A stretch of 10,560 bases of DNA from Candidatus Omnitrophota bacterium (GTDB lineage Bacteria > Omnitrophota > Gorgyraeia > JABMRG01 > JAFGKX01), in NCBI GenBank assembly GCA_020354945.1, contig CP070655.1:124252-134811 (forward strand), read 5' to 3'. Of the stretch, positions 134 to 10,560 are shown one piece after another (the stretch's first letter is position 1; the number at the start of each line of letters is the position of its first letter). The notes beneath the pieces are model-generated. The model ran no database searches. It had not been told where the DNA came from and was given only the letters and a program-made list of their open reading frames with translations. The translations under genes and the position numbers were made by a program.

Positions 134-1398
134 CCCAGCTTCAATTAGCGAGAAAAAATAAGATAACACACCTTATGAGGGAGGCAGCGAAAAAAGAGGC
201 TGCATCTGCCGAATTTATAAGGCGGGGTATATCTAAAGGCAGGATAGTATTGCCGGCCAACAAGAATCACACCAGCCTTAAAGACCCCTGCGCAATAGGT
301 AGCGGTCTTTCAACAAAAGTCAACGCTAATATAGGCACATCGGAAATCTACCACAATATTTTAACAGAGCTCAGGAAATTAAAAATTTGTATAACGTATG
401 AGGCTGATACAGTGATGGATTTAAGCACAGGCGGAAACCTTTCTAAAATTAGAAAAAGAATTATTGCTCACTCTCCCATCCCGGTAGGCACTGTCCCTGT
501 ATATGAAGTAGTCGCCAATGCAAAAAAGGACGGTTTAAATATTAAGGATGCTTCTGTTGAGGATATGTTTGAAGTGGTAGAAAAACAAGCTGAGGAAGGC
601 GTTGATTTTTTTACTATACATGCCGGGGTAACAAAGGCCTCAATCAGGGTTTTAAAACATGCTAAACGAGTTACCGGGGTAGTGAGCCGCGGCGGGGCCC
701 TGACGATGAAATGGATTTTAGCCAATAGGAGAGAAAATCCCTTTTATGAGTATTTCGATAGATTATTGGCGATTCTTAAAAAATACGATATTACACTGAG
801 CCTTGGAGACGGGTTGCGTCCTGGTTCTATAGCCGATGCGACCGATAAACCTCAATTAAAAGAGCTGTCCATCTTAGGGCAATTAGCAAAACGGGCACAA
901 AAAGAAGGGGTTCAGGTAATGATAGAAGGCCCCGGCCACATCCCTATTAATCAAATCAAAAAGAATGTGGATATACAAAAAAGGGTTGCAAACGGTGTGC
1001 CGTTTTATGTATTAGGCCCGTTAGTTACCGATATCGGCTGCGGTTATGACCATATAACAGCAGCAATAGGCGGCGCCTTGGCAGCAAGCTATGGCGCAGA
1101 TTTTTTATGTTATGTAACCCCGTCCGAGCATCTTGGCCTTCCTAATTGCGAGGAAGTAAAAGAGGGCATAATTGCTACCCGCATTGCAGCGCATGCGGCT
1201 GATTTAGCAAAAGGGATTCCCGATGCCGGGAGGAGAGATTACTCTATCTCAAAATTTCGCAGGCAAAGAAAATGGAGAGAGCAGATAAATATGTCTTTAG
1301 ACCCTCGAAGGGCCAGGATGATACATTCAAGGCTAAAGTCAAACATAGCGGATATATGCAGTATGTGCGGCGAATTCTGCCCTATGAAGATAACTTGA
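130..1398 (+). CDS. thiC: Phosphomethylpyrimidine (HMP-P) synthase, short anaerobe-type form
   Basis: Motifs TKVNANIGTS, ADTVMDLSTGG, GTVPVY, SRGG, SLGDGLRPG, EGPGH, GYDHIT, YVTPSEHL and the C-terminal Fe-S motif CSMCGEFC. Coupled to thiE. Confidence 0.95.
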   Translation: MTQLQLARKNKITHLMREAAKKEAASAEFIRRGISKGRIVLPANKNHTSLKDPCAIGSGLSTKVNANIGTSEIYHNILTELRKLKICITYEADTVMDLSTGGNLSKIRKRIIAHSPIPVGTVPVYEVVANAKKDGLNIKDASVEDMFEVVEKQAEEGVDFFTIHAGVTKASIRVLKHAKRVTGVVSRGGALTMKWILANRRENPFYEYFDRLLAILKKYDITLSLGDGLRPGSIADATDKPQLKELSILGQLAKRAQKEGVQVMIEGPGHIPINQIKKNVDIQKRVANGVPFYVLGPLVTDIGCGYDHITAAIGGALAASYGADFLCYVTPSEHLGLPNCEEVKEGIIATRIAAHAADLAKGIPDAGRRDYSISKFRRQRKWREQINMSLDPRRARMIHSRLKSNIADICSMCGEFCPMKIT

Positions 1399-1401
1399 TA
1401 T

Positions 1402-2301
1402 ATGAGTTTATTAGTAATTGGTTCAATGGCTCTTGATACTGTTGAGACTCCTTTTGGAAAGAATATCGATGTATTAGGGGGCTCAGCAGTATATGGCTCA
1501 GTTAGCGCCTCATACTTTACGGATGTAAAAATTATTAGTGTAATCGGTAAGGATTTTCCAAAAGCACATATGAGGCTGCTTAAAAGCAAAGGCATAGACT
1601 TATCCGGTGTTCAGGTAAAAAAGGGTAAGTCTTTTAGATGGGAAGGGAAGTATGACTGGAATTTAAATTCGCCACAAACCCTGGCAACCCACCTTAACGT
1701 CCTTTCGGATTTTAGGCCTGTATTATCAGATTTTGATAGAAAGTGCGATTTTATCTTTCTTGCCAACAATGATCCGGAGCTTCAATTAGATATTATTTCG
1801 CAAGCATCCCCTGCTAAATTTATGGCAGCTGATACTATTGAATTTTGGATAAATAATAAAAGGTCAAAACTTATCAAGGTTTTAAAAGGGGTCGATATCT
1901 TTATAATAAATGAGAATGAAGCTCGCCTGTTGACAAAGGAGCCAAATCTCGTCAAGGCTGCCAAGGCAATAATTTCCCTCGGCGCAAGGAAAGTGATTGT
2001 AAAAAAAGGCGAGCACGGCCTGCTCTATGTTACAAAGAGAAGTTTTTTTGCCACCCCCGCTTACCCTTTGGAAACCATATATGATCCTACCGGTGCAGGC
2101 GATAGCTTTGCCGGGGGGTTTTTAGGTTTTTTAGCTAATACTAAACATCTAAATGAGGCCTCATATAGAAAAGCCCTAATATATGGAACCATAATGGCAT
2201 CGTATAGTGTAGAAGGCTTTAATTTAAAGGTATTGTCCGCTCTTAATCGGCGGTTGATTGAGAAAAGGTATAAGGAATTTGAGAAGCTGGTGAGGTTCTA
2301 A
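1402..2301 (+). CDS. PfkB/ribokinase-family carbohydrate or nucleoside kinase (substrate unknown)
   Basis: N-terminal GS.ALD...GGSA motif, N..EA motif, VIVKKGEHG, and the PfkB signature DPTGAGDSFAGG. Confidence 0.9.
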   Translation: MSLLVIGSMALDTVETPFGKNIDVLGGSAVYGSVSASYFTDVKIISVIGKDFPKAHMRLLKSKGIDLSGVQVKKGKSFRWEGKYDWNLNSPQTLATHLNVLSDFRPVLSDFDRKCDFIFLANNDPELQLDIISQASPAKFMAADTIEFWINNKRSKLIKVLKGVDIFIINENEARLLTKEPNLVKAAKAIISLGARKVIVKKGEHGLLYVTKRSFFATPAYPLETIYDPTGAGDSFAGGFLGFLANTKHLNEASYRKALIYGTIMASYSVEGFNLKVLSALNRRLIEKRYKEFEKLVRF

Positions 2302-2343
2302 GACAGTTTTGAAGTCTTCAGTCTTCAGTACTGATAGCTGAAA

Positions 2344-2417
2344 GCGGGCGTAATTCAGTGGTAGAATGAAAGCTTCCCAAGCTTTATATGGCGGTTCGAT
2401 TCCGCTCGCCCGCTCCA
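2344..2417 (+). tRNA. tRNA-Gly (anticodon CCC), CCA encoded
   Basis: Acceptor stem GCGGGCG/CGCCCGC, D arm ATTC-AGTGGTA-GAAT, anticodon arm AAAGC-TTCCCAA-GCTTT, T arm GGCGG-TTCGATT-CCGCT, discriminator T, then CCA. 74 nt. Confidence 0.97.
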
Positions 2418-2427
2418 GGAACTTCAA

Positions 2428-2609
2428 GGAATCGAACCGAAAAAAGTGGTAATAGGGGAAAAAGACGCCTTTTTCCCCTATCGGCGTAGATTTCTACTAT
2501 GCGGAAGGAAAAGGAACATTAAGGAAAAACTATCAGGGTTTTTCCTTAAAGGAGTGAGTGGCTGAGGCTTGCGAAGCAAACGCAAGCCACGACACGACTG
2601 TTCGATTCT
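2428..2609. mobile_element. Putative non-autonomous tRNA-linked hairpin element (MITE-like or integrative remnant)
   Basis: Terminal inverted repeat GAATCGAAC (2429-2437)/GTTCGATTC (2600-2608). Internal perfect stems: 2452-2464/2469-2481 (13 bp), 2519-2530/2538-2549 (12 bp), 2566-2573/2581-2588 (8 bp). No ORF. Followed by a tRNA 3' duplicate. Confidence 0.55.
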
Positions 2610-2623
2610 CGTCGCCCGCTCCA
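2600..2623 (+). repeat. Degenerate duplicate of the tRNA-Gly 3' end (att-like direct repeat)
   Basis: GTTCGATTCTCGTCGCCCGCTCCA versus tRNA 2394-2417 GTTCGATTCCGCTCGCCCGCTCCA: 21/24 identical, including the T-loop, acceptor 3' strand and CCA. Confidence 0.9.
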
Positions 2624-2627
2624 AACT

Positions 2628-3302
2628 ATGATTAAACGTATAACATTTCTAACAACTTTAATCTTAATTTTATCCGGCTGTGCGAGCACGCCGAAAGTAG
2701 CGACTGTGTATCCGCTTCCACGCCCCGATACAAGCGGCGTTTATCATCGCATATCTGGCGGAGAGACACTTTGGCGCATAGGGAAATCTTACAATGTTGA
2801 AATAAGCAAAATTGCTCAAGTGAATAGGCTCAAAGACCCTTCAAAAATCGTTACCGGACAGCTACTTTTTATACCAGGCGCAAAGAAAAATATAAGGATT
2901 TCTGCACAGACCGGCACAGCCGTAACTAAAACAGGATTTATTTGGCCGGTTAAAGGGAAAATTGTTTCTTATTTTGGGCAGAAAAGGCACAATACCGTTA
3001 ATCGGGGCATCGATATATTATCATACGAAGGCGCATCGGTTGTTGCGTCTAAAAATGGCGTAGTTTCATTCTGTGGTGACAAAGTGAAAGGTTTTGGTAA
3101 GACTATTATTGTCGACCACGGCGATGGTTATTCAACAGTCTATGCATATAATTCTCAAAATTTAGTTAAACCGGGCGATAGGGTAAATAGGAGGCAGGTT
3201 ATTGCCAAAGTAGGCAAAAGTTCCCGGTCCGATAAACACACTCTTCACTTCGAAATCAGGAAAAGACAAAAACCAAAAAATCCATTTTATTATTTACCGT
3301 GA
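2628..3302 (+). CDS. LysM plus degenerate M23 (LytM) lipoprotein, NlpD-like amidase activator
   Basis: Signal peptide with lipobox LSGC (Cys18). LysM domain (YHRISGGETLWRIG...GQLLFIP). M23 domain with FIWPVKG, NRGIDI, YAYN and LHFEIR. Confidence 0.88.
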   Translation: MIKRITFLTTLILILSGCASTPKVATVYPLPRPDTSGVYHRISGGETLWRIGKSYNVEISKIAQVNRLKDPSKIVTGQLLFIPGAKKNIRISAQTGTAVTKTGFIWPVKGKIVSYFGQKRHNTVNRGIDILSYEGASVVASKNGVVSFCGDKVKGFGKTIIVDHGDGYSTVYAYNSQNLVKPGDRVNRRQVIAKVGKSSRSDKHTLHFEIRKRQKPKNPFYYLP

Positions 3303-3303
3303 A

Positions 3304-3374
3304 CACCTTATCTTATTCCAATACAAAATTGCATAAGCACATGTTGAAAAAGATGCTGGAATACATAAAAGGTG
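3304..3374 (+). promoter_or_regulatory. Intergenic imperfect hairpin covering the putative RBS of the ATPase gene
   Basis: CACCTT (3304-3309)/AAGGTG (3369-3374) and TATTCCA (3314-3320)/TGGAATA (3357-3363). AAGGTG ends 4 nt before ATG 3379. Confidence 0.35.
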
Positions 3375-3378
3375 CGGG

Positions 3379-5049
3379 ATGAATTTATTTAACAACCCTG
3401 TTGTCGGAAATAAATTCTTTGCCAGAGAAAGGGAGCTCAATTTCCTGCATAGAAAAGTCGAGGACCTAAAGAATGGTTATAGGCATAACGTGGCTGTTTT
3501 AGGAAAAGGCTTAATCGGAAAAAGCTCTTTGCTTTTACATTTTCTGTCAGGTTTAGATACCGCCGATGTCGTCCCGGTATATTTAGATCTATCAACGCTG
3601 TCATTTGCCGGTTTTGTAGACCAGTTTATCGGCATGCTGCTGCATTATAATTATAAAGACATTGAAAATGAAACCAGCGCTGATTTGCAATCCCTCATAA
3701 ACCTTGCTTCATCTGATTTGCCAGGAACCTGCAAAAAAATAAAAATTATCTATTCACATATGAAAACGGCCAATAAAGAAAGGGCAGTTTTCCAGGAGCT
3801 TCTTGATTTACCTCCCTGTTTTTCTAAAGAGAGCGGCAAATTTTGCCTGATAGTTTTTGATAATTTCAGTAAACTCACCGATTATAAACTGGGTGAACCA
3901 TTTTCTATTTTGGGCGAGAAGATTATGTTGCAAAAGATGAGTTTATATATATTGTCGGATCGTCCTTATATTAATTTAAGAAATATATTATCTCAGCAAC
4001 TATCTTTACTTTTCGGGAAATTTCAAATGTTCGACCTTGAACCTTTCAGTCCGCATGAATCATTGGCCTTCATAGATTCAAGGGTAAAAGACGTAAAGCT
4101 TTCTGCTGAGCTTAAGGATTTTTTGGTTTATTTTAGCGGCGGTGAACCTTTTTATCTTGATATATTGACAGAGTCCATATCAATAAAAGCTGGTGAGAAG
4201 AAGTTATTAGTGGTAACGCAAAAAGACCTCTCTCGTTTTATATATGAATGCATCTATGCAAGATTTGCATCGGTCAATCAGTATTTTTCAAGGATTGTTG
4301 AAAAATTTTCCGGAAACGGATATTTAAAAGAGCCTATAAAAATTTTAAACGCAGTTATTAGAAAAAATAAAATAGCAGCTATAATAGAAGATTCCAAATG
4401 CTCTAAGGCAGGAATCCATAAATTATTAGAAAAATTTATAATGCAAAACATGGTAATCAAAAACGGCCCACTATATGCAATTGAGGATGAAGTATTTAAA
4501 ATGTGGCTTAGATTAAAAGAGATTGAAGCTATCCCACAGCTTAAATTGGACCAAAGAGCCCATACAGAGAAGTTTGTCAATGAGATTAGGCAACTTATTG
4601 AGACTTTTGAGAAAGAGCAGCAGAGATCAATCGATAATAAAATATTGAATCTAATCGCTGCTTTCGATAATGAAAAAGTAACTGTCGGCAAAGCAGCGCA
4701 CATATTACCCGTATTCAAACATATACATACTGAATATACAACCTCACAAGATGCCCTCCTTTCAGGCCATGGTACTAAATTATGGATATTTTCGATATTT
4801 AAAAAAATGGCTGAGGAAGATGACATTTTAAATTTTATTGATTATTATAAGAAGCTAAAGCATAGGGTGGCAAGAAAAGTACTGATTATATTAAATGGTA
4901 TTACTCCGGAAGCAAAACTTTTAGCTATGAAAGAACATATATGGATTTGGTCATCGGATAGATTAAACAGCCTGCTCAATCTTTATAGAAAAGCCAGAAT
5001 AGGCACCCAAAGGAATGCACCGTTTCTGAAAGCAAAGGGAGAAGTGTAG
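3379..5049 (+). CDS. STAND-like (archaeal ATPase_2/AAA_16-type) P-loop protein with a winged helix and a C-terminal Mrr/REase-like domain
   Basis: N-terminal NPVVG..FFAREREL, Walker A GKGLIGKS (aa 42-49), Walker B-like CLIVFDN (aa 156-162), SGGEPFYL GxP motif, a wHTH-like segment, and a C-terminal ..KVLIILNGITPEAKLLA...IWIWSSDRL pattern resembling the Mrr catalytic fold. Confidence 0.72.
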   Translation: MNLFNNPVVGNKFFARERELNFLHRKVEDLKNGYRHNVAVLGKGLIGKSSLLLHFLSGLDTADVVPVYLDLSTLSFAGFVDQFIGMLLHYNYKDIENETSADLQSLINLASSDLPGTCKKIKIIYSHMKTANKERAVFQELLDLPPCFSKESGKFCLIVFDNFSKLTDYKLGEPFSILGEKIMLQKMSLYILSDRPYINLRNILSQQLSLLFGKFQMFDLEPFSPHESLAFIDSRVKDVKLSAELKDFLVYFSGGEPFYLDILTESISIKAGEKKLLVVTQKDLSRFIYECIYARFASVNQYFSRIVEKFSGNGYLKEPIKILNAVIRKNKIAAIIEDSKCSKAGIHKLLEKFIMQNMVIKNGPLYAIEDEVFKMWLRLKEIEAIPQLKLDQRAHTEKFVNEIRQLIETFEKEQQRSIDNKILNLIAAFDNEKVTVGKAAHILPVFKHIHTEYTTSQDALLSGHGTKLWIFSIFKKMAEEDDILNFIDYYKKLKHRVARKVLIILNGITPEAKLLAMKEHIWIWSSDRLNSLLNLYRKARIGTQRNAPFLKAKGEV

Positions 5050-5062
5050 GGACGTTTCAGAA

Positions 5063-5890
5063 ATGGTGCGATGTATGACAGGATTACCGGTTATAAAAGT
5101 AGTATCCAAGACATTACCCGCAGCATGGGAAGAGGCTGTTATTAAAACCTGGAAGCAGGGTTACAAGATAAAGACAGAATATGATAAATCGGGCGATCCC
5201 CCCAGCAGGGATGCAACTATGATTATGATAGTAGAAGAGCCTGTGTCAGAACCGCGGATTCATAGAGCGTTTCCGGGTGGTTTGGAAGACCTGGAAATAT
5301 ACAGGCAGGAAGTAATCAATGGCATACATGATGATTGGATAAATCCTGAAGAAGGAAAGTGGACATATACCTATCATCAAAGAATATTTTCATATCAAAT
5401 CAATGGCGAAAAAATAGACCAGATGGATTATATCATAGATAAACTAAAAAAGAGAGAGTATTCTCGTCGGGCCCAGGCCATAACCTGGAATCCAAAATTA
5501 GACCCCTTAACGGATGATCCGCCGTGCTTGCAGCGAATCTGGTTTAGAATATCAAGAGACACTGCTAACAAGCCTGTTTTGAACATGAATACCCATTGGC
5601 GCTCTAGAGACGCGTATAAAGCGGCATTTATGAATATCTTTGCCTTAACCGATATGCAGAGAGTGGTTGCAGAAAGGCTGACTAAGGAGATAGGGGAGGA
5701 GGTAAAAGTCGGCCGATACGTTGATATTACGGATAGCTTTCATATATACGGTAGTTATTACGGAGAATTCAAAAATTTCCTGGATACAGTCAAAAAAAGA
5801 ACCTTTGAACAGAGAACCTGGGACAGTAAGTTTGCAGAACCATTTTTTAAAGAGGCAAGGAAGAGAGTAAAAGAGGAACAAAAGACATGA
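5063..5890 (+). CDS. thyA: Thymidylate synthase family protein, archaeal (methanogen)-like ThyA; true start may be ATG 5075
   Basis: YTYHQR, SRRA, catalytic DPPCL, and RSRDAYKAAFMN (aligns with E. coli RSCDVFLGLPFN, Asn retained), plus SFHIY. GGTG lies upstream of ATG 5075. Confidence 0.82.
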   Translation: MVRCMTGLPVIKVVSKTLPAAWEEAVIKTWKQGYKIKTEYDKSGDPPSRDATMIMIVEEPVSEPRIHRAFPGGLEDLEIYRQEVINGIHDDWINPEEGKWTYTYHQRIFSYQINGEKIDQMDYIIDKLKKREYSRRAQAITWNPKLDPLTDDPPCLQRIWFRISRDTANKPVLNMNTHWRSRDAYKAAFMNIFALTDMQRVVAERLTKEIGEEVKVGRYVDITDSFHIYGSYYGEFKNFLDTVKKRTFEQRTWDSKFAEPFFKEARKRVKEEQKT

Positions 5891-6363
5891 AAAAGATATG
5901 GGCGCCGTGGAGAAGCAAATATATATATCTAAGGAAGAGAAAAGGGTGTATATTTTGTAAAGCAGCTAAGGTGAAAAAGGACGAAAAGCATTTTGTTGTT
6001 GAAAGAACCCCCCTTTGTTTTTCTATGCTAAATATATATCCTTACAACAACGGACACTTAATGGTCGCCCCATATCGTCATAAAACGTCACTAATAGATT
6101 TTAGCCAGGATGAACTATGCGATTTAATCATCTTGGTTAAAAAGAGTCTTCGTTTAATTGATAAGGTTCTAAAACCGGATGGTTACAATCTTGGTTTTAA
6201 TATAGGCAAGATAGCGGGTGCCGGATTTGCCGGCCATCTTCATATGCATATCGTTCCTCGCTGGCAAGGGGATACCAATTTTATGCCTGTTTTAACTCAA
6301 ACCAAGATAATGTCCGAATCATTGGATTCTTTATACAGGAGATTAAAGAGTGCTAAAATCTAA
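5887..6363 (+). CDS. HIT-family nucleotide hydrolase/phosphorylase (Ap4A phosphorylase-like subgroup)
   Basis: IWAPWR, CIFC, NIYPYNNGHLMV, and the histidine triad HLHMHIVPRW.GD.NF. ATGA overlap with thyA. Confidence 0.92.
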   Translation: MKKIWAPWRSKYIYLRKRKGCIFCKAAKVKKDEKHFVVERTPLCFSMLNIYPYNNGHLMVAPYRHKTSLIDFSQDELCDLIILVKKSLRLIDKVLKPDGYNLGFNIGKIAGAGFAGHLHMHIVPRWQGDTNFMPVLTQTKIMSESLDSLYRRLKSAKI

Positions 6364-7504
6364 CCAATATTACGAACATGAAGATAAATTCTTAGCCCCT
6401 TATGCCATGAAAAGCGCCTTATCGAAGGGCAGAGCGCATAAGGAGAAAGAACATCCATACCGGCCCATTTATCAGCGCGACAGAGAAAGGGTCATACATT
6501 CAACTGCCTTTAGGCTACTGGAGTATAAAACCCAGGTTTTTGTAAATCACGAAGGAGATTATTATAGAACCAGATTAACCCACACCCTTGAAGTGGCCCA
6601 GATAGCCCGTTCTATAGCACGGGCATTATGTTTAAACGAAGATTTGACCGAAGCTATTGCCCTTGCCCATGATTTGGGCCATACCCCTTTCGGCCATTCA
6701 GGCGAAGAAATATTATCCGAGATAATGAAAGAATACGGAGGATTCAATCACAATGTCCATGGCCTAAGAGTAGTCGATTATTTAGAGACCAGATATCCTG
6801 ATTTCAGAGGCCTAAATCTCACCTGGGAAGTCAGGGAAGGGATTATAAAACATACCACCCCATATGACTCTCCGGGTATAATTGCGGAGTTAAAACCGGA
6901 AATACCACCTACTCTGGAGACACAGGTGGTGAACGGAGCTGATGAGATTGCATTTGATAGCCACGACCTGGACGATGGCCTGACCAGCAATATTTTATCA
7001 GAAAGCGATTTAAAAAAAGTGTCGCTATGGAAGGAGACCTCTGCTAAAATAAGAAAAAAATACCATAATCCAGGTGAACAGATTCGCCAACTTCAGATTA
7101 TCAAAGAGATTATAAATACCCAGGTGACCGATTTGCTTGATGCCACTGAGGCAAAGATTAAACAGCATAATATAAAATCAATAGACGATGTAAGAAAGTT
7201 CTCCGGAAAGCTCGTCACATTTAGCGCATCGATGCAGAAAGAAAGAGAGAGCTTAAGAGATTTTTTATTTAAGAATCTATACCGGCATTACAGGGTTTTA
7301 AGAATGTCTAATAAGGCCCGCCGTTTTATAAAGGAATTATTTAAGGTATATATTTCTCAACCGGAACAGCTCCCAACCGGCCCCAGAACAAGAATCAAGA
7401 CCGAAGGGCCTTATAGAGTTGTTTGCGATTATATTGCCGGCATGACAGACCGTTATGCATTAAACGAATACAAAAAACTCTTCCAGCCTTTCGAACGAGT
7501 ATAA
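6350..7504 (+). CDS. dgt: Deoxyguanosinetriphosphate triphosphohydrolase (dGTPase-like, short HD type)
   Basis: QRDRERVIHS.AFR.L..KTQVF, RTRLTHTLEV, HDLGHTPFGHSGE, ADEIAF..HDLDDG and DYIAGMTD. GTG start with AGGAG at 6337-6341. Overlaps the HIT gene by 14 nt. Confidence 0.93.
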   Translation: MLKSNQYYEHEDKFLAPYAMKSALSKGRAHKEKEHPYRPIYQRDRERVIHSTAFRLLEYKTQVFVNHEGDYYRTRLTHTLEVAQIARSIARALCLNEDLTEAIALAHDLGHTPFGHSGEEILSEIMKEYGGFNHNVHGLRVVDYLETRYPDFRGLNLTWEVREGIIKHTTPYDSPGIIAELKPEIPPTLETQVVNGADEIAFDSHDLDDGLTSNILSESDLKKVSLWKETSAKIRKKYHNPGEQIRQLQIIKEIINTQVTDLLDATEAKIKQHNIKSIDDVRKFSGKLVTFSASMQKERESLRDFLFKNLYRHYRVLRMSNKARRFIKELFKVYISQPEQLPTGPRTRIKTEGPYRVVCDYIAGMTDRYALNEYKKLFQPFERV

Positions 7505-7514
7505 AAATTATACC

Positions 7515-7538
7515 GTAGGAGCCGCCTCCGGCGGCGAA
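7515..7538 (+). repeat. GTAG-family REP-like palindrome
   Basis: GTAG-GA-GCCGCC-TCC-GGCGGC-GAA: a GTAG tetranucleotide followed by a 6-bp GC stem, a GC island in an AT-rich 40-nt spacer. Confidence 0.6.
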
Positions 7539-7544
7539 TATGAA

Positions 7545-9065
7545 ATGAAAGATATAAAGACAGAATATAGGAACGAATTTCTTAAACGGTTCACCCAAAG
7601 TGAAATTTTTAAAGAGGAACAGTCCTCTTTTAATAACATATTGGGAAGGGTGCAGTGGTGTTTGTTTCCGTCTGCAACGGGAAAATTGATTGACAAACAA
7701 TTAAAAGAAATCGCAGTAACAGGGCCCCAGAAAAGAATCCTTTTGAATAAAAGATATAAAAAGCTATTATGTTCAAATATTGATAAGGTAAAAAGAACAA
7801 AGAACCTGTCGCTATTTAAAAACAACAGTTTCTATAATGTTTGCCTGCCGCTCGGAAGAGGGGACAATATTTATGGCTATTTAGTATTGAGCGGCCTTAG
7901 AAAAAGACTTGGTAGCGAGTTGCTGGCGTTATTGATGAGTTTTACCAATTCTATAATCGAAGAGATTAGCAAAGAGATGGAACTTTCAAAGTTATATGAA
8001 GTTATAAGGCCCAGGGCAATCGCACTTTCAACCATCCACACCATTCATAGGCTGATAAGCTCAACCCTGGACATTAACGAACTATTGCCAAGGATTGCCC
8101 GGCTGGCCCTTCAGGTATTAAGGGCAGAGCGGGCGGCAATATATATGTTAGAAAAAGAAACTTCTAAATTAAAGTGTGCCGCATCAGTTAATTATACAAA
8201 GGCCAAAGATTTTTTTAAGATTAGCCAAAGATGCAGCCCTTTAGCCCAAAGAATCCTTTCTACTGCCCGCTCAATATTAAAGAAGGATTTATTGGCTGTG
8301 CCGTTGATAGAAGAAGAGGATGTTATCGGGGTTATAGCGGTTAGAAATAAACTCGAAGAAAAAAGTTTCACTATGTTCGACCAGGAAATACTCATTACGT
8401 TAGCAGAACAGGCAGTGATAGCTATTAGAAACGCCGAACTTTACATGGAGCAGCAGGATATAACAATAGGAAGTATAAAATCATTGGCATCGTTGCTGGA
8501 TCTTAAATTACCTGGCGCTTACACTCACACCAATCTATTTGTTGAATTAATCTTAGCCTTAGGCAGAGAGATGAATCTTTCCAGGGAAGAGATGAGGTAT
8601 TTACATTATTCTGCTTTATTGCCGGATATAGGCATGGTATTTGTCCCCGAACAAATACTCAGAAAGACGACTCCTTTGAACAAGAAGGAATTTCGGCTTA
8701 TAAAAAAGCACACCAAAAAAGCAGTAGAGATTACGCGGTATCTAAAGGATCTGGAGCCGACCATACCGATAATTTTGCATCATCACGAAAGATTCGACGG
8801 TAAAGGTTATCCCGATAGATTAAAAGGCAATAAGATACCGGTAGGATCTAGAATCATGGCAGTGGGTGATGCGTTTGAAGCAATGATACGCAGGCGCCCT
8901 CGCCGTAAACCACTCACACCCACAAAGGCTGTCTTTGAAATAGAATCGCAATCCGGTAAACAATTCGACCCAAAGGTAGTCGATGCCTTTATGAAACTCT
9001 TTAACGACGGCAGATTAGGCAGTTTGGTCAAAGGTCACAAGCATGAGCTTAAAAAGATTTTTTAA
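7545..9065 (+). CDS. Sensor (PocR/GAF-like) plus GAF plus HD-GYP protein with a degenerate HD dyad
   Basis: GAF features: ISSTLDINELL, LLAVPLI.EEDVIGVI, F...DQEILITLAEQAVIAIRNAELY. HD-GYP features: HHERFDGKGYP, RIMAVGDAFEAM, SGKQFDP. LLPDIG replaces LLHDIG. Confidence 0.88.
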   Translation: MKDIKTEYRNEFLKRFTQSEIFKEEQSSFNNILGRVQWCLFPSATGKLIDKQLKEIAVTGPQKRILLNKRYKKLLCSNIDKVKRTKNLSLFKNNSFYNVCLPLGRGDNIYGYLVLSGLRKRLGSELLALLMSFTNSIIEEISKEMELSKLYEVIRPRAIALSTIHTIHRLISSTLDINELLPRIARLALQVLRAERAAIYMLEKETSKLKCAASVNYTKAKDFFKISQRCSPLAQRILSTARSILKKDLLAVPLIEEEDVIGVIAVRNKLEEKSFTMFDQEILITLAEQAVIAIRNAELYMEQQDITIGSIKSLASLLDLKLPGAYTHTNLFVELILALGREMNLSREEMRYLHYSALLPDIGMVFVPEQILRKTTPLNKKEFRLIKKHTKKAVEITRYLKDLEPTIPIILHHHERFDGKGYPDRLKGNKIPVGSRIMAVGDAFEAMIRRRPRRKPLTPTKAVFEIESQSGKQFDPKVVDAFMKLFNDGRLGSLVKGHKHELKKIF

Positions 9066-9303
9066 ATCGCACATACACAGAAAGATAATCATCTTTTTCC
9101 ATCAAAATCCATCCAGTATCGATACCCCCCGCGGAGTAGCTACCTGGATCAATTACGATAGGCCGAAGGTAAACAAGGCATTAAAGGAACTGGCCAAACA
9201 CAAGATACTCGATATCCACAAATCTGCCACCGCCACCGGCTACTCCTATACCAGAGATAAAAAAATAATAAGAGAGATAAAAAAACAGCTGCAAGATATC
9301 TAA
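9043..9303 (+). CDS. Small winged-helix-turn-helix protein
   Basis: 86 aa, basic. Helix, then DTPRGVATWINY helix, then RPKVNKALKELAKHKIL helix, then a beta wing (..GYSYT). Overlaps the HD-GYP gene by 23 nt and the next gene by TAATG. Confidence 0.65.
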   Translation: MSLKRFFKSHIHRKIIIFFHQNPSSIDTPRGVATWINYDRPKVNKALKELAKHKILDIHKSATATGYSYTRDKKIIREIKKQLQDI

Positions 9304-9983
9304 TGGGCAGAATAGCAAAATCGTTAATAATAGCTATCGTCGTTATCCTGTTCGCATTTACCGCCGTTTTAAAAACTCCTTTAGTAAAATATCCGGTTTC
9401 TTTATTCCTTTCCCGCTGCCTAAAATCAGATATATCAATAAAAAAATGCGGCTTTTCATTTACAAAAGGGATAAAGGCTTCCGATGTTGAGATTAAAAAT
9501 AAAAAAGGCCTCCATTGTATTATAAAAAATGCTGATATACAGTTTGATTTCCTTTATTTGGCAAAAAAGGGGCTGGGTTTTAATTATTCATTAAAATCAG
9601 TCAGATTTTCTTATCCGGCCTCCGAAGTTATAAATGGTATTGCTAGATTATTTGCTATTGAGCCGACTCGGTTGCTAGAATTTGACACTGTCGATGGAAT
9701 AGTTTACATTAAACCCGATGAAATTGTCATAAAAGATTTGAATGCCGCGGGGAAAGACATAAGCCTTTTTGCTAACGGCACAACAACGGAGAATAAATAT
9801 ATTAATTATGCGCTTAAACTAATATTATCGGAAAGTTTGACTTTGAAAATTTCGGAAAATATACGTCAGTTTTTCTTCAAAAAAGAACAAGAACATTCCA
9901 TCGTAGAACTATATTTAAGCGGCAATGTAAAAAAGCCCTCCATAAACTTCTCCACCCCCCTCTTCAAACTCCGCATAAAATAG
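9303..9983 (+). CDS. Membrane-anchored beta-rich protein, AsmA-like/GspN-like
   Basis: N-terminal hydrophobic anchor, repeated amphipathic beta strands, and a C-terminal LYLSGNVKKPSINF pattern resembling AsmA/GspN C-termini. Confidence 0.5.
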   Translation: MGRIAKSLIIAIVVILFAFTAVLKTPLVKYPVSLFLSRCLKSDISIKKCGFSFTKGIKASDVEIKNKKGLHCIIKNADIQFDFLYLAKKGLGFNYSLKSVRFSYPASEVINGIARLFAIEPTRLLEFDTVDGIVYIKPDEIVIKDLNAAGKDISLFANGTTTENKYINYALKLILSESLTLKISENIRQFFFKKEQEHSIVELYLSGNVKKPSINFSTPLFKLRIK

Positions 9984-9986
9984 GGC

Positions 9987-10165
9987 GCTCAGGGCATTGT
10001 TCGCAAAACTAATTTTTCCCGCCGTACTTTTGAACTTATGACTCGTTCGTTTGGCGGAATTCTTTAGCAAGAAAGTAGCGAGTCAGTTCCGCCACTCACT
10101 CGCCATAAGTCCTAAAAGTACATTTGGCGGGAAAAATTAATTGTTTTGCTCACAATGCCCTTCGC
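9987..10165 (-). repeat. Long imperfect inverted repeat (structured ssDNA/RNA or MITE-like element)
   Basis: Paired blocks 9991-10000/10152-10161, 10003-10009/10143-10149, 10010-10023/10126-10139, 10024-10031/10114-10121, 10034-10040/10104-10110 and 10053-10059/10087-10093. Mismatches read as GA/GA and G.T on the minus strand. Confidence 0.85.
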
Positions 10166-10231
10166 TTAAGGCGTTAGTTTTGCCAAAAAATTTCTGATGC
10201 CTCGCTCACAATGCTCCTCGCTTGAGGCGTT
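10148..10231. repeat. 28-bp imperfect direct repeat, two copies with a 56-nt period
   Basis: GCTCACAATGCCCTTCGCTTAAGGCGTT (10148-10175) versus GCTCACAATGCTCCTCGCTTGAGGCGTT (10204-10231): 25/28 identical. Confidence 0.85.
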
Positions 10232-10279
10232 TTTGAAATACTAAAAAAGGAATATTTTCAGACAAATTTCAGTTTTCGC

Positions 10280-10308
10280 TTTTAAAACCGGTTTTTTTTA
10301 TATATAAT
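10280..10308 (+). promoter_or_regulatory. Putative sigma70 promoter for the last gene
   Basis: Perfect -10 TATAAT at 10303-10308. The -35 is weak (TTTTAA at 17-bp spacing). Upstream DNA is AT-rich. Confidence 0.45.
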
Positions 10309-10313
10309 GTATA

Positions 10314-10368
10314 GGATCAGACCCTGGGATGTGATATCTGCTTTCAAAGGGTCTGACCATTTAGGAGG
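10314..10368 (+). promoter_or_regulatory. 5' leader stem-loop followed by a strong RBS
   Basis: TCAGACCCT (10317-10325)/AGGGTCTGA (10348-10356) 9-bp stem, extendable by GG/CC. AGGAGG at 10363-10368. Confidence 0.5.
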
Positions 10369-10372
10369 AAAC

Positions 10373-10560
10373 ATGCCCGATACATTTTTAATAACTTTGG
10401 TATTCATTGCCTTATGCACCATAATCGGAGCCTTTGTTAAGGGACGCAGCAAGGACAGATGCCTCGTAGATTTTAAAAACTCGCCAGTCACTTTAGAACT
10501 AAAGGACGGTAAATCAGTCTGGGGCAGGCTCAATGTAGAACACACCGGAATTGAATTAAT
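10373..10560 (+). CDS. Hypothetical membrane-anchored protein (3' truncated by window edge)
   Basis: Not in the ORF track. AGGAGG then ATG 10373, open to the window end: MPDTFLITLVFIALCTIIGAFVKGRSKDRCLVDFKNSPVTLELKDGKSVWGRLNVEHTGIEL. N-terminal transmembrane helix followed by basic residues. Confidence 0.85.
   Translation, partial: MPDTFLITLVFIALCTIIGAFVKGRSKDRCLVDFKNSPVTLELKDGKSVWGRLNVEHTGIEL

Follow-up and report, generated by a model that had tools for sequence, protein, structure and literature searches.

A family of small, hairpin-rich non-coding elements in Omnitrophota with inverted and direct copies of host-gene ends at its borders

Behind the tRNA-Gly(CCC) gene that is the sole tRNA of the window (by which we mean the whole 10,560-nt stretch of DNA analysed here) lie two further versions of its own T-loop, one inverted and one direct, which raises the question of how they came to be there and whether they act on the tRNA or record an insertion. 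The three T-loop motifs (+, -, +) to which an earlier, sequence-only reading had drawn attention are all present. The 12-mer GGAATCGAACCG at 2428-2439, here called anti-T and, for any host, antiX, begins 11 nt past the CCA and is the perfect reverse complement of the T arm at 2392-2403. Its positions 2429-2437 are also perfectly complementary to 2600-2608, and visual inspection suggests a further G.T pair between the G at 2428 and 2609. With up to one mismatch the 12-mer matches only two sites in the 10,560 nt (2392-2403 and 2428-2439); dinucleotide shuffles gave an expectation of 0.03 matches, and two matches occurred in 0 of 200 shuffles. The distal copy at 2600-2623 is a 24-nt direct repeat of 2394-2417 with 88% identity. 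No open reading frame of at least 60 aa lies wholly inside 2389-2599. The genes of the window are housekeeping or unrelated ones, and transposition genes near the element were not found among them. The features of the locus are collected in Table 1.

Table 1. Layout of the element and its surroundings at tRNA-Gly(CCC), in window coordinates
Feature	Position	Strand	Remarks
tRNA-Gly(CCC)	2344..2417	+	ARAGORN and Rfam tRNA (67.8 bits); intact, CCA encoded
Block missing from the empty allele	2389..2599	+	211 nt in place of the five native bases CGCGA
T-arm bases of the live tRNA-Gly, complementary to anti-T	2392..2403	+	left arm of the left-end hairpin
Spacer, CCA to anti-T	2418..2427	+	10 nt
Anti-T (antiX) GGAATCGAACCG	2428..2439	+	left host-derived end; reverse complement of the start of the host repeat
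Conserved core	2440..2549	+	A-run, then G-rich bases and two hairpins; covariance model R1
Core hairpin P2	2452-2481	+	
Conserved unpaired TATCGGCG	2479-2486	+	
Conserved unpaired GCGGAAGGAAAAGGAACA	2501-2518	+	
Core hairpin P4	2519-2549	+	
3' module	2550..2599	+	lineage-specific hairpin between GAGTGA and GACACGAC; ends directly at the host repeat
Right-hand host repeat, T-loop to CCA	2600..2623	+	native tRNA-Gly 3' end, displaced by the insertion
Downstream gene, LysM plus peptidase M23	2628..3302	+	outside the element; marks the native right flank

Public sequence data contain an empty allele of this locus. Contigs of three public runs from three studies (X2, X4 and X7) join 2388 to 2600 through CGCGA, resulting in a tRNA-Gly with the T stem GCGAG/CTCGT that is followed directly by the LysM/M23 gene. 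The block between these points comprises the T-stem 5' strand, T-loop, T-stem 3' strand, acceptor 3' strand, CCA, spacer, anti-T, core and 3' module. A T stem GCGAG/CTCGT, as in the empty-allele contigs, is also carried by the tRNA-Gly of a genome of the same genus (G001). The live tRNA-Gly of the window instead has the T stem GGCGG/CCGCT, which differs from its closest relatives and is the same in G003, a relative from another genus. Together, the empty allele and the T stem of G001 show that the 211 nt are an insertion and that the live T arm arrived with the element. Since the empty allele has the same CTCGT strand and the same transition into the downstream gene, 2600-2623 is the native end of the resident gene. 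The two host copies differ at three adjacent T-stem bases, the proximal one being foreign. The live tRNA-Gly, with its foreign T arm in place and its native 24-mer downstream, is therefore a mosaic of resident and imported parts, a circumstance that affects genome annotation. Anti-T is complementary to the imported T arm at 12 of 12 bases, but to only 9-10 bases of the native copy.

A foreign T-stem 5' strand is not what an exchange inside the T-loop would predict. We therefore assume import by recombination, and the element most likely reached the window inside an allele of another lineage into which it had already been inserted. On the left, the crossover of such an import would have fallen in the conserved 5' part of the tRNA, serving as homologous anchor, and on the right in the 9-nt identity of the T-loop. 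The sequence-only reading had also considered that the inverted ends could permit inversion; no inverted form was present among the contig joints listed in four runs, where rare forms would be beyond the reach of contigs.

What was inserted belongs to a multi-copy, hairpin-rich family of non-coding elements. The own genome (G000) contains six copies of the 182-nt segment that separates the CCA from the downstream repeat, the window's and five others. Two of these others follow tRNA-Arg(ACG) and tRNA-Met directly on the tRNA strand, each ending with a T-loop-to-CCA copy of its own tRNA, and the remaining three lie away from tRNAs and have different left and right hairpins. The 3' module of the window recurs in the Arg and Met copies and in the Trp copy of G001. 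By BLAST the element was found in 16 of 61 relatives, and covariance model R1 matched 22 of 151 genomes sampled across the phylum, 20 of them in the window's class and two outside it. Among copies the size ranges from ~150 to 270 nt, of which the core takes ~110 nt. When 24 copies of the core were aligned, 14 of the 22 predicted pairs in its hairpins still paired through changes on both sides. The order is host end, spacer, antiX, A-run and core, lineage-specific 3' module and direct host-end copy, an architecture first read by eye in 17 copies and then in further ones.

A permissive Rfam 15 search of 2000-3000 passed only the tRNA, the best non-tRNA match in 2418-2599 scoring 19.3 bits against a gathering score of 52. 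A degenerate core pattern picked out 10 loci on viral contigs, and 0 of these matched model R1 at E <= 0.01. Full-text searching of the literature, supplements of the cited papers aside, found no description of the family. The own genome is 89% complete, and its 'single contig' is made up of ~130 pieces with 100-N runs between them, in which no replication origin can therefore be placed. Copies were co-oriented with their nearest open reading frames in 18 of 24 non-tRNA cases and 33 of 47 tRNA-linked ones. In 35 of 40 copies the strand of the element shows a positive local GC skew; because the skew mirrors this co-orientation with flanking genes, it provides no evidence of lagging-strand targeting.

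We then examined how the inverted and direct host copies relate to each other in a census of 53 distinct copies with an intact left end. Copies missed by the regular expression for the left landmark, including the window's own and the own-genome Arg copy, were left out, as were matches without the left third of the profile. A tRNA on the same strand ends at most 420 nt upstream in 35 of the 53, and 28 of these 35 display a right-hand repeat of the end of that very tRNA, spanning 20 tRNA species. The seven tRNA-linked copies that lack a clear right-hand repeat are truncated, run into a contig end or are followed by another tRNA. Where antiX could be scored, its complement begins no more than 3 nt from the start of the right-hand repeat (21 of 24 copies), and in 11 of the 24 antiX also covers the 1-3 nt of the live gene that precede the repeat start (offsets -1 to -3). 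The suggestion that anti-T co-varies with the T arm of its host was borne out, the cognate tRNA scoring higher than the mean of the non-cognate ones in 31 of 35 copies; it was strictly the best antiX match in only 9 of 35, since T-loops are shared among tRNAs. Likewise, the proposal that the element builds its ends from its own target agrees with the one inverted and one direct host copy found across copies, and the re-targeting that had been thought possible does happen, as the presence of the family at 20 tRNA species demonstrates.

Several dimensions of this arrangement vary. The complementarity of the inverted copy spans 10-19 nt, generally the first ~10-14 nt of the direct copy; the host repeat is 17 to ~60 nt long, and the distance from CCA to antiX is 3 to ~270 nt. 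In other copies the spacer may carry a terminator-like hairpin or another repeat; by reading, a hairpin plus T-run separates the tRNA from antiX in at least six. A hairpin that pairs the host end with the inverted copy is present in most copies. AntiX is perfect in the window's copy and in copies of G012 and G015, and most T-loop copies have GA where the perfect complement would be TC, which places a mismatch of 2 nt at the centre of the stem. Repeats run a few bases past the CCA in several copies, and where a tRNA gene does not encode CCA the repeat is also without it (L020, L012, L025 and L070). At tRNA-Lys in G052 and tRNA-Trp in G001 the host copies decay in their T-loop part, and the inverted copy does not follow.

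The rule linking the two host copies holds at tRNA, tmRNA and protein-gene targets, and it follows the place of insertion within the host. At a tRNA-Pro (L013) the anticodon stem is both the starting point of the repeat and the part to which antiX is complementary, and at a tRNA-Gln (L097) the repeat start and antiX both fall in the T-stem/acceptor region. The host of L090 is a tmRNA gene. The L056 copy sits behind a stretch that we take to be the end of a 5S rRNA gene plus its terminator, a candidate only, as the contig ends there; its repeat passes through the terminator hairpin and its T-run. The target of L062 includes a promoter-like -35 region.

That copies are real insertions was checked against empty sites. 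In G008 the element (L022) lies between two overlapping protein genes that are both still intact, and five other genomes of the order have the junction uninterrupted. In the occupied allele 19 nt of the junction are repeated directly, and the left repeat copy is immediately followed by a 12-nt reverse complement of the repeat start. Both repeat copies share two substitutions that are absent from the five empty-site genomes. Remnants occur as well: the tRNA-Trp gene of the own genome is followed by a solo anti-T where G001 has a full element, and what follows the tRNA-Gly of G003 looks like a degenerate remnant. New in this analysis are the inverted/direct rule, the non-tRNA targets compared with empty sites and the imported proximal tRNA end. 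At tRNA-Thr, where G007 was compared with G004, G005 and G006 of the same genus, the spacer is too variable for the native repeat copy to be assigned.

We take anti-T and the downstream repeat together as a hallmark of insertion, most likely forming a hairpin that mimics the target. On balance we favour a model in which a mobile element, with anti-T and the downstream T-loop-to-CCA copy as its two host-derived ends, was exchanged into the resident gene by way of a target-mimicking hairpin. The moving unit would consist of a host end (here T-loop to CCA), spacer, antiX, core with two hairpins and 3' module. Within the unit, antiX would pair with the host-end copy, and the resulting stem would imitate the target in double-stranded form; strand exchange between the 5' foot of this stem and the same sequence in the resident gene would insert the unit. 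The gene would then be completed by the end that the unit brings along, the native end being displaced to the far side, and the predicted order is gene, imported end, spacer, antiX, core, 3' module, native end. The limits of the unit and the identity of its native and foreign parts are established by the data; beyond these, such a scheme would involve a single-stranded or hairpin intermediate, an exchange at the stem foot and a catalyst. The extension of antiX past the repeat start in 11 of 24 copies and the donor-type proximal copy in the window both fit it, whereas the variable repeat length and CCA-to-antiX distance count against it. Moreover, a pre-formed stem alone cannot explain perfect inverted copies at unrelated targets (L022 and L056), so that some step must copy the target. 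A bolder version, which we consider rather doubtful, is that this is an undescribed kind of DNA movement in which the hairpin of 10-19 nt serves as a programmable imitation of the target and its left arm is rewritten on each change of host, possibly on the single-stranded DNA of highly transcribed RNA genes. If true, insertion in this protein-poor system would be guided by nucleic acid and could be redirected through the sequence.

No transposase, integrase or recombinase could be tied to the element. No TnpB-like PF07282 domain was found in G000 (89% complete). This genome has one PF01797 (Y1/HUH) gene, which possesses inverted ends of its own and is not flanked by the core. Of the relatives with the element 15 of 16 have Y1 genes, and of the others 39 of 45, so that these genes do not discriminate between the two groups. 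The genome with most matches (G012) contains only two tyrosine recombinases of Xer-like size. PF00589 matches in five genomes were not beside copies, except for one upstream of tRNA-Arg in G015; in this adjacent case (contig C59 of G015) the integrase lies upstream of the tRNA. Integrases of ~357 aa by tRNA genes in G015, G001 and G003 were considered and set aside, as they are not inside the element, and the homologue in G001 marks a different type of island that duplicates the 5' half of the tRNA. Two Y1 genes near copies were likewise discarded: that near the copy on contig C55 of G036 sits among a different short repeat motif (of the GACCTGTCCC type), and contig C68 of G015 is a perfect 5,021-nt palindrome, probably an assembly artefact. 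The idea that GGA-rich unpaired stretches act as a CsrA sponge was dropped, there being no CsrA domain in G000 (89% complete).

The complementarity could alternatively operate in RNA. The sequence-only reading saw in anti-T a switch of tRNA maturation that would either invade the T arm and disrupt folding and processing of the tRNA, or pair with the downstream T-loop copy and free the tRNA. Folding of 2344-2627 bore out one part of this: T-arm invasion is allowed in silico, the unconstrained minimum-energy fold (-108.0 kcal/mol) placing anti-T on the T arm and also pairing the 5' acceptor strand of the tRNA with the distal acceptor copy. An enforced cloverleaf reached -104.3 kcal/mol and a cloverleaf plus anti-T:downstream pairing -100.3 kcal/mol; three states within 8 kcal/mol indicate that invasion could occur, in energy models that take no account of tertiary contacts in the tRNA, of its modifications or of transcriptional order. 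Co-variation of the anti-sequence with host T arms would suit a switch, but a shared origin in the host sequence accounts for it, and it holds at non-tRNA targets too. A role in tRNA maturation is further contradicted by the same architecture at a protein-gene junction and at a tmRNA gene, by the presence of anti-T downstream of only 4 of the 29 tRNAs in the own genome, by the terminator-like hairpins between tRNA and anti-sequence in at least six copies (by reading), and by the solo anti-T that persists without a downstream copy at the own genome's tRNA-Trp. A switch is not needed for the co-variation, cannot be general and is not supported; we regard it as very improbable. A tentative possibility that deserves more weight is that the element is a gene for a structured small RNA within the tRNA transcription unit, antiX and host copy forming its terminal helix and mobility being secondary. 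The putative RNA would have a tRNA-like single-stranded NCCA tail, and tRNA-processing enzymes could cut and protect it. Consistent with this reading, the hairpins are conserved with compensatory changes, the unpaired purine-rich stretches are strongly conserved, G.U outnumbers A.C in the predicted stems (~15 versus ~7 by our own count), and most copies are co-oriented with their neighbours. The precursor of the window folds well below shuffles (z = -5.5), yet for the window copy alone the closed form, at -73.8 kcal/mol, does not reach the minimum of -74.5 kcal/mol. The terminal helix would be ~19 bp in L086 and L082, whereas the decaying T-loop part of the host copies (Lys in G052, Trp in G001) is not matched by the inverted copy. 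In L021, L069, L092 and L114 the 3' module abuts nucleotide 1 of a full tRNA or lies at most 3 nt from it, which is where RNase P would cut and thus fits an RNA gene; hairpin-plus-T-run terminator-like sites, by contrast, were predicted on the opposite strand only, no Rfam family matches, and the insertions with target repeats at a protein-gene junction are left unexplained. An RNA function and mobility may hold together.

Other routes of insertion have to be compared with the exchange of a target-mimicking hairpin. IS1634 reportedly produces long, variable target duplications, and the element could similarly be a double-stranded miniature element with widely staggered target cuts that give duplications of variable length, the inverted copy being added by fold-back or template-switch repair. 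The two substitutions shared by the L022 repeat copies are as expected for a local target duplication, and the repeats that run beyond CCA in several copies, or lack CCA where none is encoded, are also in accord with it. However, there are no fixed terminal inverted repeats, we know of no repair step that gives an inverted copy skipping the distal part of the duplication, and in the window the proximal copy and the matching T-stem 5' strand are foreign. Staggered-cut duplication thus fits L022 but not the window, and we consider it unlikely, even if long variable target duplications without other mobile genes are described for restriction-modification gene insertions in passages of PMC2853133. 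Reverse transcription could provide a further route, in which a reverse transcriptase copies the element RNA, switches template to abundant RNA 3' ends and captures their last 20-60 nt. Host repeats do terminate at RNA 3' ends or a few bases beyond them, the L056 repeat includes terminator hairpin and T-run, and the tRNA-Pro repeat begins next to position 37, which bears a blocking methyl group in many bacteria. The L020 repeat, on the other hand, lacks CCA where CCA is not encoded, and the promoter-like -35 region in the L062 target also argues against an RNA intermediate. Reverse transcriptase domains (RVT_1) show no association with the element, being found in 4 of 16 element-bearing versus 13 of 45 other relatives and not found in G000 (89% complete), which makes this route quite unlikely. 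Even less probable is a scar of an integrase-borne island in tRNA-Gly, with the tRNA and its proximal flank as attL, the 24-mer as attR and the body deleted. Repeats from T-loop (or anticodon stem-loop) to 3' end and a displaced native end are the textbook signature of an island, and G001 has a real island of such kind. The same ~110-nt core, however, lies between the repeats at 20 tRNA species in many genomes, as is not the case for a random deletion remnant; the 211 nt hold no open reading frame, integrase genes were not next to the copies examined (one upstream of a tRNA aside), and the family also has non-tRNA targets.

Set against known systems, the element combines an island-like effect on the gene, a REPIN-like size and structure and a self-complementarity like that of IS608 or folded att sites, while differing from each in defining features. 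As in tRNA-integrating prophages and islands, the repeat extends from the T-loop in most copies, and from the anticodon stem-loop in L013, as far as the 3' end of the tRNA, and insertion leaves the gene intact while moving its native end to the far junction; long integration sequences of such tRNA-integrating elements are described in passages of PMC2853133. In contrast to them the element is small, has no integrase and carries an extra inverted copy of the repeat start, and in place of the single attachment site of an island it uses 20 tRNA species, a tmRNA gene and a protein-gene junction. It is small, non-coding and multi-copy like a MITE, but its terminal complementary segments are host-specific and its repeats are not of fixed length (17 to ~60 nt). 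REP/REPIN sequences with RAYT, like IS200/IS605 single-strand transposons and their miniature derivatives, are comparably small, hairpin-rich and non-coding; here, however, the Y1 gene of G000 is not core-flanked and the distribution of Y1 genes does not track the element. The restriction-modification units treated in passages of PMC2853133 likewise have variable direct repeats of tens of bases and no transposase in the insert. They, and reportedly IS1634, are gene-sized inserts that have no inverted target copy, and the element differs in both respects.

Other systems recognize their targets through their own sequence. In IS608, according to passages of PMC5027513, an internal guide at the foot of the left-end hairpin recognizes the flanking target by base interactions, and highly transcribed rrn genes are favoured. 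Guide and target of IS608 are 4 nt long and there is no target repeat, whereas the element has 10-19 nt of complementarity and two copies of the host end. The attP(+) hairpin of CTX phage is a folded single-strand recombination site. In integron attC sites, inverted segments of one strand pair similarly and imitate a duplex site with unpaired central bases. A single-strand exchange like that of attC or attP(+), followed by replication, would give the order host end, element, host end; however, attC and attP(+) keep a fixed target, while the stem sequence of the element changes with each host. Type V-K CRISPR-associated transposons have homing guides that match tRNAs, as set out in bioRxiv 10.1101/2021.02.06.429022. 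These guides resemble the element in placing a copy of tRNA sequence beside a conserved RNA-like scaffold and close to the matching tRNA gene, but no Cas12/TnpB-type domain was found in G000 (89% complete), the distance to the tRNA is variable, and the element has an additional inverted copy.

When small repeats are found downstream of tRNA genes, the usual label for them is integrase scar or terminator. The occurrence of one core at many hosts, with forward and backward host copies and no tied enzyme, points to a mobility in which the target is read or copied through base pairing. Should this prove correct, many of the 'duplicated tRNA tail' scars of bacteria and archaea with small genomes would be accounted for, and sequence-programmable insertion would gain a simple test case. 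The units also vary in number and content: L021 is a tandem array of units, and in L072 a gene for a ~190-aa P-loop protein stands in place of one hairpin.

In one copy of the element, behind a tRNA-Glu gene (L072), the second hairpin has given way to an ORF that encodes ~190 aa and contains a P-loop motif. The 3' module persists 3' of this ORF, and the tRNA-end repeat is absent. Four further copies (L021, L069, L092 and L114) are followed by a complete tRNA gene: Arg(TCG) twice, Arg(TCT) and Met. Nucleotide 1 of that gene abuts the 3' module or lies at most 3 nt from it. In this arrangement the element stands upstream of the tRNA and would be co-transcribed with it.

On the minus strand, T-rich tails follow both core hairpins, which score as intrinsic-terminator-like sites (two predicted against 0.6 expected); the plus strand has no predicted site of this kind. 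The element might stop antisense transcription.

At the tRNA-Trp locus the window's own genome (G000) has only a solo anti-T sequence, GGGATGAGAACCC, whereas the same-genus genome G001 has a full element there. The solo sequence, without core or repeat, lies immediately 5' of the next gene's start codon. The window's genome also has a second repeat family with a similar left hairpin (TTGATGGCATAG ... CTATGCCATCAA), but the conserved body after this hairpin is a different one. A piece of this second family has inserted into the copy of the element near 1,020,800.

In G001, the 5' part of tRNA-Pro(GGG), as far as the anticodon loop, is repeated perfectly over 42 nt at the two borders of an island (L077). 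A 356-aa integrase gene there stops 13 nt short of the intact tRNA. Homologues of this integrase are encoded just upstream of tRNA-Arg in the genome G015 and of tRNA-Met in the other-genus relative G003. The insert at the tRNA-Gly locus of G001 (L039), the same locus as in the window, differs from the element; it lacks a tRNA-end repeat and contains a ~90-nt repeat, present twice in tandem, as well as a small ORF.

Y1 genes were found near some copies. The palindromic contig of L109 is probably an assembly artefact, and therefore its two element copies and Y1 genes are to be counted once. A 166-aa Y1/HUH gene adjoins an element copy at L110 (G036:C55) and L088 (G154:C5); clustered about this gene are copies of another short repeat, GACCTGTCCC, and of the repeat's complement. 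This short repeat and gene look like a separate REP/RAYT-type pair.

Coordinates of the features described
Feature	Locus	Position	Strand	Remarks
Core hairpins with T-rich tails	window	2451-2482 and 2519-2549	minus	scored intrinsic-terminator-like
Four-gene row 3' of LysM/M23 gene	window	3379-7504
ORF-bearing element copy	L072 (G014:C31)	about 527-1132 of reversed locus	reverse	behind tRNA-Glu
Copies with 3' module at tRNA start	L021 (G037:C47), L069 (G003:C36), L092 (G098:C7), L114 (G070:C69)
Solo anti-T	G000:C1	43458-43530		behind tRNA-Trp
Second repeat family	G000:C1	near 559054, 570194 and 935226
Island at tRNA-Pro(GGG)	L077 (G001:C35)	1217-1258 and 10559-10636		9.3 kb
Different insert at tRNA-Gly	L039 (G001:C36)	about 1315-2280		about 960 nt
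Perfect inverted repeat	L109 (G015:C68)	147-5167 and 5480-10500		5,021 nt each, 312-nt centre

The gene row downstream in the window encodes a 556-aa AAA_16 ATPase-like protein, a thymidylate-synthase-like protein (weak match), a HIT-domain protein and an HD + HD_assoc phosphohydrolase. These genes may form a cluster of nucleotide-modifying or defence type.
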